Below are positions 31,778 through 44,586 of a DNA stretch of 64,000 nucleotides, in pieces. Under the pieces are notes generated by a model, which was not told where the DNA came from, made no database searches, and worked only from the letters and a program-made list of their open reading frames with translations. Made by a program: the position numbers and the translations under genes. Source of the stretch: Candidatus Micrarchaeota archaeon (GTDB taxonomy: Archaea > Micrarchaeota > Micrarchaeia > Anstonellales > Bilamarchaeaceae); assembly GCA_040754495.1 (NCBI GenBank), contig JBFMCO010000022.1, positions 18,233 through 82,232 on the forward strand, written 5' to 3'. Each line of letters starts with the position of its first letter. The first letter of the stretch is position 1.

Positions 31778-34700
31778 TCACAGGAAATCGGACAGCCCCA
31801 TCTGCTTGACCTTGTCGTCCTCGAATATGCTCTTTATCTCCCGCTCGACAAGCACCAGCCTCTGCTTCAGGTAGGAGGGAAGGTCGTAGCGGTCGCATAT
31901 GTCGCGGGATATCTCCAGGTATTTCTCGATTCCGCCCTTGTTGATTGTGAGGAGGAGGTTGCCCCCGCAGCGCGCGCACTTGCCCGCCAAGGGCACCCTG
32001 CGGAAGATGGTGTTGCACGAGACGCAGCGGAAGGTCTGCCTTGAGAAGGAGCGCAGGTTGCCGTAGAGGTCCGGGATGAAATGGCTCAGTATCAGGCGCT
32101 CGGCTGCATCGCGCCTATCAACCGGGCGGAGGCGGCCCTGGAGCCTGAACTGTATGTCTATCTTGTCCGGTATGGACTGCAGCTCCACGTAAGCCGTCCG
32201 TATGTTCCCGACATCAAGCGTGCCGCCCGGATGCGTGATGGGAAGCTCGTACTGCTCGTCGGTCCCCAGGACGTCCTTCACGGTCTTGAGCTTCACCTCG
32301 CCCGGCGGCGCGAAGCGCTCCGCGGCCTCGTAGAACTCGAGGGGGTAGCGCGAGACGATTTCGATGCAGTGCGCCTCGTCGTCCACCTCCTTGGGGTTTA
32401 TCTCTATGGAGAGCACGAGGGGCGCGTCCATGGTGCCCCCGCGCTTCTCGTCGAGGAACCTGCGGGAGAAGTTGATGAGGGCGTCCATCAGGAGCATCAC
32501 GCAGTCCTCGTCGCCGTCGCACCGAATCGTAAAGACCTGGTTGTTCAGAAGAACATTCTTTTCTTCCAGGGATTGGCCTTCCACATCGAGGCAGTATGCC
32601 GGAACTCCGTCTGTGAATTTCTCAATCGACCTGACCTTATCGAAAATATAGTCGCTTTGAGGCACGACCGTGAACAGCTTATTCTGGTATTTGATAAATC
32701 GCGCATCGCTCGACAGACCGTTTCTTCTCAGTTCGGACATTCGTTCTGCCTTATGCTTCACAGAGGGCGCGCAGATATTTGCAAAGGCATATAGGTCGGT
32801 GCCATAAAGACTAATGAATCTCTGCGAAAGCAAACGCGGGGTTTTTCCGAGCTCTTTATACCTTTCAAGGACCTTTTTGCCAGGCAAACGCGGTTTGGTT
32901 TTGCCATACCTGCAGAAGATTCCAAATCGCAAAAGCAGCGTGCCGAAATCCTCCAAAAGATTTTGTGAAACGGAGTAGAAGTGCATTCTCGGGGGGGTGG
33001 CGATTACACTTCCATCTCCGTCAAAATAAGCAGAAATAAAGGATTTGACAAGACGGTCAGGCAGTGAAAAGACGAGATTTGGAACCCGTTTCGTGTAGGC
33101 ATTTGAGCCGGTCTTCAAGACTTTATCAAACAGAAGGTGGATTATCCGGCTGCACATTGTTATCTGAGTGCCGTTCTCGCCAAGATAAGGGTTCGTCATA
33201 AAAACGCTTTTGATGGCGGCAATAAGCCGGTTCTGCATTATTTTATTGCAAACCCTGAAGCTGACCTGATAACACGAAGGGCTTCTCCGTGCATACCCCT
33301 CTGAGACGAAGTAGCCGAGAATGAGCATCAGGTCCTCATCTATTGGAATTCTTACCGGCAGCCCCAGGTTATCTCTCTTCATGGCAATTTTTGCATCCAT
33401 GGGCAAATCCTCAAAATTGCACACCCCCTCTTCCACAAGGATTTCGAAATGGGAGAGTGGAACGCGTCCATACCACCTGCTCGGAGTCCGTCTCTCGATT
33501 TTGTTGAGCGGCAGGATTCTGAGCAGCAAATCGCGATGATTATAGAATATTTTCTTGAAAAAATCCTTCGAGCGAAGTATTATCGCTTCTTTTTCTTCCT
33601 TTTTTAGTGGAGATAGGGCCTTTGCAAGATTGAGCACGCGGGAGTCGTCTATCGTGTGCGGATTGAATTTTATGCAAACTGGCAGATCGGAGCCTTCAGT
33701 CATATCTTTTGCCTGAACTGCGCTAAGCGCCCCTTTGTTGAGGCAAAGAATATTATGGTCGGGAGTCACGGTAATCTCCCGGTGGGTGGTTGTCGTAAGC
33801 TTAATCCATTTATCGGGAGCCTTTGCTCTGATGAAGCATTTGATTTTTTTACGGATTGTTTTGTGGGATTGGAGGTCTATTCCGAATGAGTAAAGAGTTC
33901 CGGGAACTTCCACTTTTTCTGTATAAGCATCAAGCCGCTTGACCCTGTCGGGGTATTTGGCAAACATTTCTTCGGTAACATCGCCCAGTGCCCTTTTGAT
34001 ATATTTTTTCTCGTGCTCATCAAATATGATAATCTCGGTTGCCGGATGGAAGCAGTTCCTTCTCTTCGCCGTGTGGAAATACGGGTGGCCGTAGCCGACG
34101 TTGGCCTTGTTGAAGCCCACGATGCGGCACAGGACGCCGGCGCTCGTGTGCGGCGAGAGCCCGACTGCCAGGTGGCCTATCAGGTCGTCCTTCGACTTCA
34201 CGTTGTAGAAGGGCTTCATGCCGTAGAGGTTGATTAGCATGTCGTCGATGAAATCCGCCACACGCATGAAGTACGCGGCGCCGTTCTCGGAGAGGACGAT
34301 GTCCTGGTGCCGCAGCGCCAGCGTCTGGGAGCCGCTCTCGAGGGGCTTGCCAAGATAATCCACGGCATAACCGAGCGCCCTGGCCCTATCGAGGCTTATG
34401 CCCACCTCGTCCGGCGTGAAATGCGTGAGCGGGATGTCTGTCGCGTCGAAGCGGGAGGTGCCGTCCCTGAAAACGTAGACGTCGTGCTTTGCGCGGAGGA
34501 AGCCCTTCTCCAGCCGCTCCGGGATGCGGATGGTGTTCGAGAGGCCCTTCACCCCCTTCACGTCTTCCGGGGAGCTCCCCACCCGGTCCTTCACGCGCTC
34601 GAAGAGCTCCATTATGTCTACGGGCCTGCGGTCGTAGGAGAGCGTCTTCATCTCGCAGTGGATTTCGTACTCGCAGATGCGGCCGCACTTCTGGCATATC

Positions 34701-36658
34701 CGCTCCTCGGCGGCCCTGCCGCCGCAGACGTCGCAGCGCCGGTAATAGCCGAGGCGGCGGCATTTTTCGCATCGCAGCCTGGCGAGCTCCAGGTTGATCG
34801 TCTTCTCGCCCTCGGCACCCCTGAGGGCACGGTGGACCTTGCTCAGGCTCCGGTTCTTGAACGAGCCGGTCGGGAAGAGGACGTGCGGCGAGCCGTCCAT
34901 CTTCCTTTCCTTTGCCTTCTCCGGCCTGCCCATGCGCGCTCCTATATAAGTAGGAGCCTTGGCCTTGATGCGTATCTGGGAGGCCGCGTTCACGATTTCG
35001 AGCGCGCCCTTTGCGGCATCGTATGCCGCTTCGAAGCGGGAGAGGTCTATGCGGCCATCCGAAAGCGCCCCCAGCGAAGAGAGGAGCGCGTACGCGTCGT
35101 CGCCGTCAAGGATGACATTCCCGTCGTGCACCCTGTGCTCCGCGAGGAGCTCCTCCAGGGCCCTTTTCGCAGGCGATGGCGGAAGGACGAGCGAGCGGAG
35201 CCTGCCATCGTGCATCTCCAGCTTCCCGCCCTTGAGCCAGTCCGCCAGGGATTTGAGCTGGTCCGGCGACAGGTCGTGCCAGTGGAATGTGTAGCGCGGA
35301 TGTAGAGGCACGCCATGCGTCCGCGAGAATGCAAAAAGCCCCGGCGCGTCCATGGCGGCAGGAGGCTGGACTCCCTTGGATTCGAGCTCGCGCTCCCACC
35401 ACTCTTCGCAGTAGCCGGATGGCATGAGGGGGTGGTTGGACTTGTGGAAATCGCCGTACGTGCAGAGCAGGTCGCCCAGGAAAAGGATTTCTTCCACCTC
35501 GTCCTTGATGCCGTACGACTCCTCCAGCGTCCGCACCTTCATCACGCGCCCGCTTTTGAGCTTCACGACCGGCGGCTCGAGCCCCTCGTGCGCCGCGACC
35601 ACGCAGCCCTTCCCGGGGCGCTCTATCTTCATGTGAGTCCCGTAGGCCAGGAAGTTGTCGAGCAGTATCATCGTGGCAGGATGGACGTCCTTGCCCATGA
35701 GGCAGGTGGTCTTGCTCCTGCCGTAGCGCAACCGGAACCCGCCCTTGGCCGAAGGGTGGCTGAAGACCGGCCTCCCCGCTACAAGCCCTTCCATGTAGGT
35801 CCAGTCCGGCTTCACCTCGACCTTGTCCGCCTTTTTCTTTATCTTGATGATTTTCTCGAGCCAGTCCCAGCCCAGCTTGAGCTTCTTGGCGTATTTGAGG
35901 AGCTTGGCGGCCTTCGCTGCCACGCCCTCGCACATGACGAGGGGCACGCCGCCGCGCACGCGGTCCGTCTCCACTCCCGGCACCCCGCGGTAGGTCGAGA
36001 CCTCGATTTCCTCGGTCGGGTCGCCGTCTATGCAGACCGGGCAGTTGGATGCTATCACGCGCACGTCGTCCTCCGGCGGCATGTACTGGAGGTGGGTTAC
36101 GCGCGTCTCGTATGTCGTTACCTCCTCGTAGTATCTTGCAATCTGGGAGTCCGTGGCGCGGTAGTCCCCCACGCTGCATACGCGGCGCGCGATGTCGGCA
36201 AGCACCAGGCTGAGGGCGGCCGCAGTGCCTCCTGCGCTCCGGATGGGGCCCGCATAATAGACCGCCACGTAGTCGCTCCCGTCCGGGTTGCGCTTTATCC
36301 TCACTTTCGCTATGCCCTCGGTCGGGGCGACCAGGACGCCCTCGGTGAGTATGCCGAGGCCCGTCCTCACCGCCTGTTCGATGAGAAGCTCCTTGGACGC
36401 CTTCATCAGCTCGCCGCCGGCGATTTTGCGTGCGATTTCGAACGCGATGTCCTCGCGGCCCATGCCACCTTTTTCCATGTCCCGGATGAGATCTGCCACT
36501 CCGGGGGGGCCGACGATACCCTCCACGCGGGCGGCGATGTCCTTGGCTATCTTGACTTCTATGTCGTCGCTCGGGTCATAGCCGAGCCTCCTTGCCTCTG
36601 AGGCGACGGCGTATGCCTTCTGCAGCCCCTCGCGGAGCGTCTCCACATACTCTCCCAT
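31778..36658 (-). CDS. polC: DNA polymerase II (PolD) large subunit DP2, interrupted by one intein
   Basis: 1,626 aa. Zn-finger run CEKCRRLGYYRRCDVCGG...CQKCG. Catalytic region GHPYFHTAKRRN|C...|CDGDEDCVMLLMDALINFSRRFLDEKRGGTMDAPLVL, which is contiguous in intein-free DP2. Confidence 0.9.
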   Translation of the reverse strand: MGEYVETLREGLQKAYAVASEARRLGYDPSDDIEVKIAKDIAARVEGIVGPPGVADLIRDMEKGGMGREDIAFEIARKIAGGELMKASKELLIEQAVRTGLGILTEGVLVAPTEGIAKVRIKRNPDGSDYVAVYYAGPIRSAGGTAAALSLVLADIARRVCSVGDYRATDSQIARYYEEVTTYETRVTHLQYMPPEDDVRVIASNCPVCIDGDPTEEIEVSTYRGVPGVETDRVRGGVPLVMCEGVAAKAAKLLKYAKKLKLGWDWLEKIIKIKKKADKVEVKPDWTYMEGLVAGRPVFSHPSAKGGFRLRYGRSKTTCLMGKDVHPATMILLDNFLAYGTHMKIERPGKGCVVAAHEGLEPPVVKLKSGRVMKVRTLEESYGIKDEVEEILFLGDLLCTYGDFHKSNHPLMPSGYCEEWWERELESKGVQPPAAMDAPGLFAFSRTHGVPLHPRYTFHWHDLSPDQLKSLADWLKGGKLEMHDGRLRSLVLPPSPAKRALEELLAEHRVHDGNVILDGDDAYALLSSLGALSDGRIDLSRFEAAYDAAKGALEIVNAASQIRIKAKAPTYIGARMGRPEKAKERKMDGSPHVLFPTGSFKNRSLSKVHRALRGAEGEKTINLELARLRCEKCRRLGYYRRCDVCGGRAAEERICQKCGRICEYEIHCEMKTLSYDRRPVDIMELFERVKDRVGSSPEDVKGVKGLSNTIRIPERLEKGFLRAKHDVYVFRDGTSRFDATDIPLTHFTPDEVGISLDRARALGYAVDYLGKPLESGSQTLALRHQDIVLSENGAAYFMRVADFIDDMLINLYGMKPFYNVKSKDDLIGHLAVGLSPHTSAGVLCRIVGFNKANVGYGHPYFHTAKRRNCFHPATEIIIFDEHEKKYIKRALGDVTEEMFAKYPDRVKRLDAYTEKVEVPGTLYSFGIDLQSHKTIRKKIKCFIRAKAPDKWIKLTTTTHREITVTPDHNILCLNKGALSAVQAKDMTEGSDLPVCIKFNPHTIDDSRVLNLAKALSPLKKEEKEAIILRSKDFFKKIFYNHRDLLLRILPLNKIERRTPSRWYGRVPLSHFEILVEEGVCNFEDLPMDAKIAMKRDNLGLPVRIPIDEDLMLILGYFVSEGYARRSPSCYQVSFRVCNKIMQNRLIAAIKSVFMTNPYLGENGTQITMCSRIIHLLFDKVLKTGSNAYTKRVPNLVFSLPDRLVKSFISAYFDGDGSVIATPPRMHFYSVSQNLLEDFGTLLLRFGIFCRYGKTKPRLPGKKVLERYKELGKTPRLLSQRFISLYGTDLYAFANICAPSVKHKAERMSELRRNGLSSDARFIKYQNKLFTVVPQSDYIFDKVRSIEKFTDGVPAYCLDVEGQSLEEKNVLLNNQVFTIRCDGDEDCVMLLMDALINFSRRFLDEKRGGTMDAPLVLSIEINPKEVDDEAHCIEIVSRYPLEFYEAAERFAPPGEVKLKTVKDVLGTDEQYELPITHPGGTLDVGNIRTAYVELQSIPDKIDIQFRLQGRLRPVDRRDAAERLILSHFIPDLYGNLRSFSRQTFRCVSCNTIFRRVPLAGKCARCGGNLLLTINKGGIEKYLEISRDICDRYDLPSYLKQRLVLVEREIKSIFEDDKVKQMGLSDFL
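32522..34054 (-). mobile_element. intein (511 aa) with LAGLIDADG homing-endonuclease domain in PolD DP2
   Basis: Starts CFHPATEIIIFD after KRRN. Block B ITVTPDHNIL. LAGLIDADG motifs LILGYFVSEGYA and FISAYFDGDGSV. Block F-like AYCLDVEG. Ends ...NVLLNNQVFTIR directly before CDGDED. Confidence 0.8.
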
Positions 36659-41730: not shown

Positions 41731-42678
41731 TCAGGAGGGTTTCTTGAAGCAGAGGCAGCGCATCTCGCCCCAGTAATCCGGAGGCAGGCCCGGGCCGCGG
41801 AGCACCTCGGCCAGGCGGACCACTTCCACCCGCGTCTCGGCCGCGGCCTGCATGTCGGTCTCGGCCACCCGGGCTATCCACTTGTCCCTCACCCAGCCGG
41901 AAACATCCTCGCTCATGTCGAGCGGGCGGCTTATGAATGCCAGGAGCTTGGCGCCTTCGGAGCCGACGACGCCGTAGGGAAGGGGCAGCCATGGGTAGAC
42001 GTCCATAATTATGAACCGCCCGCCGTCCCTCAGGAGGTCGAACGCATTCGTCATCACGGCCCCCCTGCTCGCCAGCGTCTGGAAAGAGCCCCACCAGAGG
42101 ACTATGTCGAACATGGCCGGCTTCACCACCGGGCTTTCCCGGACGAGGCCCTCCATGGAGAGGTCGATTGACGCCATCGTGACGGCCTTCCCGTCCGGCC
42201 TGATGAACTCCGCCAGGTTCGACCTCGCTATTAGGTTCAGCTCGGGCGACACCTCGTTGGCGAATACGCGCAGGCCCGAGTTAGCGGTGTGGAGGAGATA
42301 GCGCGACACCATCCCGGTGCCGCAGGTGGCATCAAGGATGAGTTTCGCGTGGTTGATGTCAGGCACGAGGGACCGGAGCTTCATCCAGTTGACCGCGATA
42401 GCGGTATACTGGCCCGTCAAATCCATGAAGACGTCGAGGGAGCTCCCGCCGCCCTCGTGCGGGCGGGCCAGATACCCGCCCGTGGTAACCCGGACGGCCC
42501 CGAAGCCTCTTTCGCGCAGGACTTCATCTTCGTGCTGGCTTCCGTTTCCGAAAAGCGCGGGTGATTCTTCCACAAGCGGGGCAGCGCCGCCGCCTGCGCG
42601 GCGCAGGCCGGAGATGGGGACGCTCCGCTCGCCCTGGACTACGAACACGCGCTGGGGCTTCCTGAAACGTTCCGGCAT
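41731..42678 (-). CDS. class I SAM-dependent methyltransferase
   Basis: ATG at 42678 (ORF track GTG at 42687). Motif I ILDATCGTGMVSRYL, then LRDGGRFIIMDV. Confidence 0.6.
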   Translation of the reverse strand: MPERFRKPQRVFVVQGERSVPISGLRRAGGGAAPLVEESPALFGNGSQHEDEVLRERGFGAVRVTTGGYLARPHEGGGSSLDVFMDLTGQYTAIAVNWMKLRSLVPDINHAKLILDATCGTGMVSRYLLHTANSGLRVFANEVSPELNLIARSNLAEFIRPDGKAVTMASIDLSMEGLVRESPVVKPAMFDIVLWWGSFQTLASRGAVMTNAFDLLRDGGRFIIMDVYPWLPLPYGVVGSEGAKLLAFISRPLDMSEDVSGWVRDKWIARVAETDMQAAAETRVEVVRLAEVLRGPGLPPDYWGEMRCLCFKKPS

Positions 42679-42816
42679 ATCACCCACTCGGGACTTTATT
42701 AGACTGGAAAGGTATTTAAGTTATTATATATGTCGCGTCTTGGATAATAACGCGTTGCACCCGGAAAACAGAACTCGGGCCCGGGGCACTGAACCGGAAA
42801 CCGGCTGCCGGGGGCT

Positions 42817-42853
42817 GGATGCAGGAAAAAAATAGCGGGGGGTAGATTTGAAC
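42817..42853. repeat. 37-bp direct repeat, copy A (partial copy of initiator-tRNA 3' end plus its downstream flank)
   Basis: GGATGCAGGAAAAAAATAGCGGGGGGTAGATTTGAAC is identical to 42960-42996. No complete tRNA can be folded around copy A. Confidence 0.8.
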
Positions 42854-42959
42854 CCCCAGCCTTTTTATAATCGGAATCCTGGCCCCGGAGAAAAAGGCTA
42901 GGGTTAACCCAAAAACCAGTTTCTCGGAACCCTGAACCCGAAACGGGAAACCGGAAACA

Positions 42960-42996
42960 GGATGCAGGAAAAAAATAGCGGGGGGTAGATTTGAAC
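42960..42996. repeat. 37-bp direct repeat, copy B (overlaps the intact initiator tRNA 3' end)
   Basis: Identical to 42817-42853. Covers tRNA positions from the T-loop to the discriminator (42976-42996) plus 16 nt downstream of the tRNA. Confidence 0.8.
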
Positions 42997-43080
42997 TACC
43001 GGTCCCTGGGTTATGAGCCCAGTGGGAACTCCAAGCTTCCCATAGGGCAAATTCTAGATGTTAGAATTTGTTACCCCGCT
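42976..43080 (-). tRNA. initiator-type tRNA-Met(CAU) with one intron (about 43042-43071) between position 9 and the D-stem
   Basis: Minus strand: AGCGGGG-TA-[ACAAATTCTAACATCTAGAATTTGCCCTAT]-GGGA-AGCTTGGAGT-TCCC-A-CTGGG-CTCATAA-CCCAG-GGACC-GGTAG-TTCAAAT-CTACC-CCCCGCT-A. A1:U72 and three G:C pairs next to the anticodon loop are archaeal initiator hallmarks. Confidence 0.75.
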
Positions 43081-43812: not shown

Positions 43813-44586
43813 TTAGGATAAAGTAAAATAAATCCTCCTGTTGTCCTTCCCCTTGTTGTCGAGACGGAGTATGGCTATCCTGCCTACCTCCGCAAGGCTC
43901 CGCACGTGAGTCCCGCCGTCCGCCTGGACGTCTATGCCGGGAATCTCGACGATGCGAAGCTCGCTTATGGATGGCGGCAAAGCGCCTGCAAGCTTCACGA
44001 CGCCAGGTATCTTCATCGCTTCCGCGCGCGGAAGAGTATAGACCTTGAGCGCTGCGCCGCTTGAGAGCGCGTCGTTCGCCTTCCGGACGATTTCCTCGAA
44101 TTGCGGGCGGTCGAACGAAGCGAGGCTGAAGTCGAAGCGCGCCTTGTCCTCCTCGAGCTGATTTCCCGTAATCAGCACGCCGAGCTCCTTGTACATGGCA
44201 GCTCCGAGCACGTGCGCTGCCGTGTGCATGCGCATGAGCTTGTAGCGCCGCTCCCAGTCTATCACGCAGCGGACATGGTCGCCGGCCCCGAGTTTCCAGT
44301 TCCCGGTTTCGTCTTTGGGTTCAGCGTCCAGAAGGTGGACGATTTGGCCGTCTTTCTTGAATACGTCCACGACACTGAACACGGAACCGGGAGCGGGCGG
44401 CCCTGCGCCGGAGACCGGCTGCCCGCTGCCGGAAACCAGCGCGATGCTGCCCCGGTCGGCAGGCTGGCCGCCGCCCCTCGGATAGAACACGGTCCTGTCG
44501 AGGACGACCTCCTTGCCGCTCACCGACAGGACCTGCGCGGCGCACTCGCGCATGTAGCTGTCATCGAGATAAAGGGCCTGGCTCAT
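43813..44586 (-). CDS. alaX: alanyl-tRNA editing protein AlaX-like
   Basis: LYLDDSYMRECAAQV...VVLDRTVFYPRGGGQPADRG, MRMHTAAHVL (HxxxH), ADGGTHV. Length matches AlaX-M type. Confidence 0.75.
   Translation of the reverse strand: MSQALYLDDSYMRECAAQVLSVSGKEVVLDRTVFYPRGGGQPADRGSIALVSGSGQPVSGAGPPAPGSVFSVVDVFKKDGQIVHLLDAEPKDETGNWKLGAGDHVRCVIDWERRYKLMRMHTAAHVLGAAMYKELGVLITGNQLEEDKARFDFSLASFDRPQFEEIVRKANDALSSGAALKVYTLPRAEAMKIPGVVKLAGALPPSISELRIVEIPGIDVQADGGTHVRSLAEVGRIAILRLDNKGKDNRRIYFTLS

Follow-up and report, generated by a model that had tools for sequence, protein, structure and literature searches.

Duplicated tRNA gene ends are routinely taken as the borders of integrated elements, and one such duplication lies beside the initiator tRNA gene in the window, the whole 64-kb stretch of DNA analysed here. 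Does it mark the remains of a mobile element, or has it another origin? The repeat itself proved to be as first reported: the 37-mer GGATGCAGGAAAAAAATAGCGGGGGGTAGATTTGAAC occurs exactly twice, 143 bp apart (Table 1), with no such repeat expected by chance (0 matches across 100 shuffles), and ungapped similarity around the two copies reaches 72 nt at 83% identity (42782-42853 versus 42925-42996). Copy B, described in the initial annotation as the T-loop-to-discriminator end of the tRNA plus 16 nt beyond it, maps precisely to that part of the gene; the tRNA share of the repeat amounts to the final 21 bases of this gene, and its left boundary falls at the T-loop (G53/T54). Copy A was likewise correctly reported to have no matching 5' half, and ARAGORN calls no tRNA in its region. 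Its T-stem is broken, with GGGGG opposite CTACC, and copy A and the GGGGG before it fold into a G-C hairpin of 6 bp (42838-42857) with T-runs on both strands. A direct repeat of a tRNA 3' segment, one copy of which completes a functional tRNA, is what an att pair would present. The comparisons below show an old, cargo-free duplication that relatives share and whose copies stay uniform, rather than a fresh insertion of a mobile element.

Table 1 Features of the initiator tRNA locus, in window coordinates.
Feature	Position	Strand	Content
Initiator tRNA-Met(CAT) gene, 105 nt	42976..43080	-	Called by ARAGORN after intron removal; Rfam tRNA match
tRNA exon 1	43080..43072	-	
Non-canonical intron, 30 nt	43071..43042	-	Between nt 9 and 10
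tRNA exon 2	43041..42976	-	
Repeat copy B	42960..42996	-	tRNA nt 53-73 (42996..42976) and 16-nt trailer
Trailer part of copy B, 16 nt	42975..42960	-	TTTTTTTCCTGCATCC, T7 run inside
Flank B, 62-nt native-type tRNA trailer	42898..42959	-	Colinear with the L133 trailer, paralogous to flank A; heptamer microsatellite GTTYCNG, T5 run, palindrome GGGTTAACCC (42901-42910), terminal TAG; based on TRF (period 7) and the four-genome alignment A1
Invariant block 1, 27 nt	42890..42916	-	GTTTTTGGGTTAACCCTAGCCTTTTTC, identical in 4/4 filled genomes (alignment A1)
Junction piece X, 44 nt	42854..42897	-	CCTTTTTC, 16-nt variable loop, CGATTATAAAAAGGCTGGGG
Invariant block 2, 36 nt	42838..42873	-	CGATTATAAAAAGGCTGGGGGTTCAAATCTACCCCC, identical in 4/4 filled genomes (alignment A1)
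Repeat copy A	42817..42853	-	Dead tRNA 3' fragment, nt 53-73, and the same 16-nt trailer with T7 run
Flank A, second diverged tRNA trailer copy	42761..42816	-	Leads into the methyltransferase gene promoter
Methyltransferase gene beyond flank A	41731-42687	-	

The tRNA, initially described as intact, is recognised as such once its intron is taken out: ARAGORN then calls a 75-nt tRNA-Met(CAT) in which A1 pairs with U72 and the anticodon stem holds three G-C pairs. The unspliced gene receives no ARAGORN call, and its Rfam tRNA match (43041..42984) covers model positions 10-63 only, both because of the intron between nt 9 and 10. Orthologues in L001, L002 and L006 (L numbers denote fetched loci) are intron-free, as is tRNA-iMet in many relatives; in others (L127/L134, L003, L004, L007, L009, L012, L128, L137) introns vary in position, interrupting the anticodon stem, the T-loop (the case in L128) or the D-loop, or occurring two at once. 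The intron differs even between the closest pair, lying at 9/10 in the window and in the anticodon stem in L134, and with flanking genes 94–97% identical at four-fold sites this implies either very fast intron turnover or allele exchange. At L137:4416-5070, two inserted ORFs separate tRNA-iMet from the membrane-protein gene; one of them gives a weak LAGLIDADG_2 match, and they may represent a free-standing or decayed homing endonuclease.

An AlaX-type editing protein next to the locus places the window in the Micrarchaeota (DPANN). The usual order in relatives is AlaX, a 185–200-aa membrane protein, tRNA-iMet and a convergent VTT/DedA-like gene; a subset including the window carries two methyltransferases and an AsnC regulator (a 2.6-kb block) between the tRNA and VTT. 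This block was considered as the inserted element and rejected, since in L136 and L141 it accompanies a tRNA without a second copy; its far end shows no tRNA-like fragment. Elsewhere in the window, a single ORF of 6841 codons (1946-22471, plus strand), presumably encoding a giant protein, directly follows a 322-aa ORF and tRNA-Gly(CCC) at 461-540, and the large subunit of DNA polymerase D (DP2; 31778-36658, minus strand) is split by an intein with a LAGLIDADG domain.

Comparison with relatives, as the initial annotation had proposed, revealed both states of the locus. The two-copy layout is present in the window, in L134 (GCA_964540525.1), in L148 (Logan SRR5198901) and in L001 (JAGVNI010000007), while L128, L130/L132, L133, L136, L140, L141-147, L002 and L006 are single-copy, a state seen in about a dozen related species and corresponding to the empty target site expected of an att pair. 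The closest relative is L134 (91% amino-acid identity in AlaX and 96% in the methyltransferase). In a neighbour-joining tree of AlaX, a single protein to be read with caution and from which L148 was left out, the window and L134 formed one clade with L128 as sister, and L001 grouped with L140 and L133; the L148 AlaX falls within the same 90%-identity cluster as that of L001. The filled state is therefore patchy, with L128, L133 and L140, the loci nearest to both filled clades, being single-copy, so that purely vertical descent would require three losses or more. Between the window and L001, only 37% of AlaX four-fold sites are identical, and a layout common to two clades this far apart indicates that the duplication is old.

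The same comparison leaves practically no room for the repeat being an assembly artefact, a collapsed or duplicated repeat, which the initial annotation had named as a refutation. It is true that the assembly of the closest relative (GCA_964540525.1) breaks within the tRNA gene, inside its intron, where the end of contig L127 and the start of L134 overlap by 55 nt; this break hints at strain heterogeneity at that position. Yet four assemblies from different projects, the window and three others, independently carry the two-copy layout, each with lineage-specific substitutions, and the repeat is therefore no artefact of assembly.

We then dissected the 106-nt spacer, which consists of 62 nt of native-type trailer (flank B) and a 44-nt new junction piece (X). 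The 62 nt are colinear with the trailer of the empty site in L133, and this majority of the segment is thus not the foreign DNA that an att pair should enclose. The single trailer of L133 aligns with flank B of L001 over 56 nt without gaps (p<0.001), the alignment ending at GGGTTAACCC and the VTT stop-codon position. Flanks A and B are paralogous to each other in the window, L134 and L148 (all p<0.001), and the two units are hence homologous past the gene and into the flanking non-coding DNA, as in a segmental duplication. The trailers of tRNA-iMet in this clade (L128, L133, L134, L148 and L001; 42900-42971 and 42761-42816 in the window) form a degenerate heptamer microsatellite, and GTTYCNG (TRF period 7) also occurs in the trailers of single-copy relatives.

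The junction piece X was seen only in the window, L134, L148 and L001. A 9-bp stem, AGCCTTTTT/AAAAAGGCT, had been reported in the spacer; it is present, and extends to a 13-bp hairpin with 92% complementarity (42854-42866/42891-42903) between the right arm of X and the end of flank B, the arm AAAAAGGCTGGGG being the inverted complement of the trailer end CCCTAGCCTTTTT. X also holds a TATA-like ATTATAAAA, and the tRNA strand carries four oligo-T tracts within ~170 nt. Several origins and functions for this stretch were tried and rejected. X has no significant similarity to the 5' part of the tRNA, and alignment of the spacer to that part is no better than that of shuffled sequence, which disposes of a decayed tRNA. 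Neither the loop nor the remainder of X matches the tRNA or the 3' end of the neighbouring VTT gene, of which X is therefore no recognisable relic (similarity not significant). The spacer contains no ORF; as a coding remnant, X would yield a peptide with no homologue in the fetched loci, and the third-position bias is not significant. A search of the region against Rfam 15 returned the tRNA alone, all other matches having E >= 0.47 and scores far below the gathering thresholds of their families, and a conserved RNA fold was likewise dropped, as minimum-free-energy structures differ among genomes, no Rfam family applies and distinct sequences are few.

Of this segment, 62 of 106 nt are native-type trailer, nothing is encoded in it, and no integrase domain was found in 36 window ORFs; that it is foreign or a miniature element, as the initial annotation proposed, is not supported. 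The alternative offered in the initial annotation, a local tandem duplication, fits at least as well: the units are homologous through their flanks.

The two copies have not evolved independently. In the window, both are identical 37-mers ending TTTTTTTCCTGCATCC; in L134, both are identical 35-mers ending TTTTTACTGCATCC (L134:88-122 and 215-249), and the three differences between these genomes appear in both copies of each. Flank A of L148 is ~93% identical to flank B of L001, more than to its own flank B. Identity within genomes combined with difference between genomes implies exchange between the units, by gene conversion or unequal exchange, and these comparisons show homogenisation for which gene conversion is the probable mechanism. 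Uniformity is not equally well preserved everywhere: L148 keeps a perfect 21-nt copy, while that of L001 is decaying (16 perfect nt, then a 1-nt deletion and a C-to-T change), with a decayed acceptor strand.

Two blocks of the spacer and copy A are invariant in all filled genomes (Table 1). The second comprises 20 non-tRNA and 16 tRNA-derived nt, and both together hold 47 non-tRNA bases. Around them change is frequent: the window and L148 disagree at 7 of the 16 loop positions between the blocks, indels abound in the proximal trailer (four-genome alignment A1), and the tRNA leaders of the window and L001 are unalignable. As the 47 bases stayed invariant across lineages whose synonymous sites are saturated, we attribute their conservation to selection; the alignments show a junction module under constraint, whether it serves the host or is a cis site belonging to a selfish unit.

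When the window is compared with L134, the spacer is 77% and flank A only 54% identical, against 94–97% at the four-fold sites of flanking genes, and the 73 nt after flank A are again 96% identical. Together with the differing introns, this identifies the stretch from the tRNA to flank A as unusually prone to change or allele exchange. AlaX (43813-44586) is itself more diverged from its counterpart in L127/L134 (80% identity at four-fold sites, 91% in amino acids) than the adjacent membrane protein and methyltransferases (94–97%), an excess that suggests mosaic recombination around the tRNA locus.

Whether an element was ever involved was pursued further by searching for its parts. No integrase or recombinase domain was found by Pfam in the 36 window ORFs scanned; many ORFs have no Pfam match at all, so that an integrase of a new kind may still lie elsewhere in the genome. 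The initial annotation had suggested that the 37-mer might be found as an attP on viral or plasmid contigs. The 37-mer, the 21-nt tRNA end and two spacer patterns had zero exact matches in IMG/VR viral contigs, the DPANN mobilome being poorly sampled; blastn of the unit gave no match in phages and just two in plasmids, each of 31–36 nt and corresponding to a tRNA 3' end on haloarchaeal megaplasmids. A metagenome scan with the junction 20-mer AAAGGCTGGGGGTTCRAATC returned 73 matches, all of them ordinary tRNAs and none with the hairpin context.

These results bear on the most serious rival explanation, an eroded integration scar. A tyrosine recombinase element would have entered at the T-loop of tRNA-iMet, leaving copy B as attL and copy A as attR; its cargo would then have been deleted and the leftover retained or exapted. 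The repeat does run from the T-loop past the 3' end, as after SSV1-type integration, which leaves a 44-bp repeat (PMC3293823). Its left boundary lies exactly at G53/T54, a crossover site preferred by tRNA-targeting integrases, and relatives offer empty sites. Left of copy A stand 12 nt, AAAGGCTGGGGG, that resemble variable loop and T-stem in genuine tRNAs, one of them an archaeal initiator-like gene in L099, just as the P arm of an attP would. Further decayed 3'-end copies lie downstream of tRNA-iMet in L003, L007 and L001, a second type of copy that starts at the same position. The exact boundary, the tRNA-like 12 nt and this second type of copy, like the patchy distribution and the 44-nt junction that matches no source among the sequences compared, count against an old duplication.

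On the other side, 62 of the 106 spacer bases are orthologous to native trailer, which obliges the element either to have carried a host-like trailer or to have captured one by imprecise excision, followed by near-precise deletion of the cargo. No integrase remnant, attP or element gene was found, and 47 non-tRNA bases would not stay invariant in a dead scar. The claim of attL and attR thus keeps the duplicated tRNA end, the T-loop boundary and the presence/absence among relatives, and loses the foreign segment, the integrase and the attP. We consider an eroded scar possible but rather unlikely.

A further argument for the scar came from L128 and L129 (L128:2820-2960 versus L129:1700-1957), whose sequences match at 100% over 1768 nt before parting abruptly at the T-stem of tRNA-iMet. 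Both contigs encode an identical AlaX protein, and tRNA-iMet of L129 has an alternative compensated T-arm (AATGG/CCATT) followed by unrelated downstream DNA; the alternative 3' end had no match in the viral-contig scan. The point of divergence is either a true integration junction or a chimera within a Logan contig, tRNA k-mers being shared between species, and we downgraded it as proof of active integration for that reason.

The decayed copies in L003, L007 and L001 belong to a second module downstream of tRNA-iMet (L003:2224-2290; L007:7305-7370; L001:7610-7660), in which a T-run comes after a palindromic pseudo-3' end, GCGGRCTTTGRAC..GTYCAAAC(C)AACCGYYA. A single compensatory change is seen in this module (GAAC/GTTC to GGAC/GTCC), which in L003 has a copy of the 15-nt trailer TTTTTCTCAAAAAAT on each side. 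With its intron swaps, trailer duplications and palindromic 3'-end copies, the initiator tRNA locus of these Micrarchaeota is a hot spot of rearrangement.

Could the unit instead be a live, non-autonomous miniature integrative element? Core, flank B and X (~127–143 bp) would then be excised and reinserted at the T-loop of tRNA-iMet by an integrase acting in trans, with the invariant blocks as recombination sites. The patchy occurrence across two clades, which would in that case reflect gain and loss of a DPANN unit, the conserved ends with a variable middle, the location always at the same tRNA and the identity of the att-like copies within each genome would all be in keeping with this, as would a spacer that is 77% identical between the window and L134 amid genes at 94–97% at four-fold sites. 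We nevertheless judge it improbable: there is one copy per locus, with none elsewhere in the 64-kb window or at other positions of the 148 fetched loci; no integrase was seen; the unit is mostly native trailer; recombination alone would not make both trailers identical; and variation in the unit tracks host clades.

Even less credible is a separate gene, be it for the 3' half of a split tRNA, for a small RNA or, on the plus strand, for a micro-ORF of 17 codons (TTG..TAG, 42848-42898). The TATA-like ATTATAAAA does lie upstream of copy A and resembles the promoter box of the tRNA itself, but a transcript from it would begin ~10 nt before the T7 run. As a tRNA half, copy A has a broken T-stem, which in L001 is joined by a decayed acceptor strand, and the window offers no complementary 5' half or leader. 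As a small RNA, it matches no Rfam family and its predicted folds are inconsistent between genomes (z-scores of -1.8 to -2.6). The micro-ORF draws on the constant length of the loop and on several loop changes at third-codon positions of the plus-strand frame; these amount to 5 of 9 changes (binomial p about 0.15, calculated by hand), which is not significant, and no fetched locus encodes a homologue of the peptide. We place very little weight on any of these variants.

We therefore lean, tentatively, towards an old segmental duplication that took in the tRNA 3' end and its trailer, a reading that covers its origin, its homogenisation and its retention as a cis module. The duplicated segment begins at the T-loop of the initiator tRNA gene, passes its 3' end and takes in a trailer of ~60 nt; upstream, copy B makes up the end of the working tRNA, and the downstream unit (copy A) is a dead 3' fragment. 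The two are joined by the 44-nt junction, whose right arm, an inverted copy of the end of the first trailer, creates the 13-bp hairpin. This geometry suggests a fold-back/template-switch or some other illegitimate recombination event, with re-entry into the tRNA probably at the T-loop. The live tRNA, acting by gene conversion, would since have kept the fragment and the first 14–16 nt of trailer identical within each genome, while selection would have held the 47 non-tRNA bases of the junction module invariant. As for a present role, the stack of cis-acting hairpins and the four oligo-T tracts may stop or insulate transcription downstream of the tRNA. We predict this terminator or insulator function from sequence, and with low confidence; against it stands that archaeal termination is not known to depend on hairpins.

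The locus has several counterparts among described systems. Quasipalindrome or template-switch duplications arise by fold-back during replication with microhomology, and are usually neutral and decaying. The present locus shares with them the direct duplication, the inverted adjacent copy at the junction (here the 13-bp hairpin) and a slippage-prone microsatellite context, but differs in being conserved and kept uniform. The CIMEs of Streptococcus derive from integrative elements, carry little cargo between their att sites and depend on a helper for mobilisation. Att-like flanking repeats, the lack of a recombinase of its own and a tRNA-type target are features that the segment described here has as well; at ~130–145 bp it is at most a candidate mobile unit, whereas CIMEs are kilobase-sized and clearly foreign.

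With attL/attR of the SSV1 or pNOB8 type, the likeness lies in a direct repeat of a tRNA 3' end, one copy rebuilding the tRNA and the other forming a displaced fragment. The repeat measures 37 bp here, a length similar to the 44 bp of SSV1 (PMC3293823). It includes a 16-nt trailer and a diverged extension, it encloses no element, just a mostly native spacer of 106 nt with neither int(N)/int(C) nor an intact integrase, and its layout spans deeply diverged lineages. Foreign intervening DNA, an integrase and an attP define that family, and the locus shows none of the three; we therefore do not class it with integrated elements and regard conserved tRNA 3'-fragment duplication as its best description. 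A tRNA-end repeat can evidently persist without cargo over genus-level divergence, maintained by conversion and provided with a selected junction module, and automated callers of att sites or provirus borders would mislabel it.

A last parallel is tRNA-Thr of Caldiarchaeum subterraneum, where a fragment lies near the full gene and introns are heterogeneous (Sugahara et al. 2012, PMC3293823). A tRNA fragment near the full gene and an intron content that differs among close relatives recur here; in Caldiarchaeum a 1.8-kb insertion encoding a recombinase stands between the gene and the fragment, which is a 5' piece (PMC3293823), in contrast to the 3' fragment without recombinase at our locus. Though of modest practical significance, the initiator tRNA locus of these Micrarchaeota, as a place of frequent rearrangement, is relevant to ideas that tie the disruption of tRNA genes to recombination.
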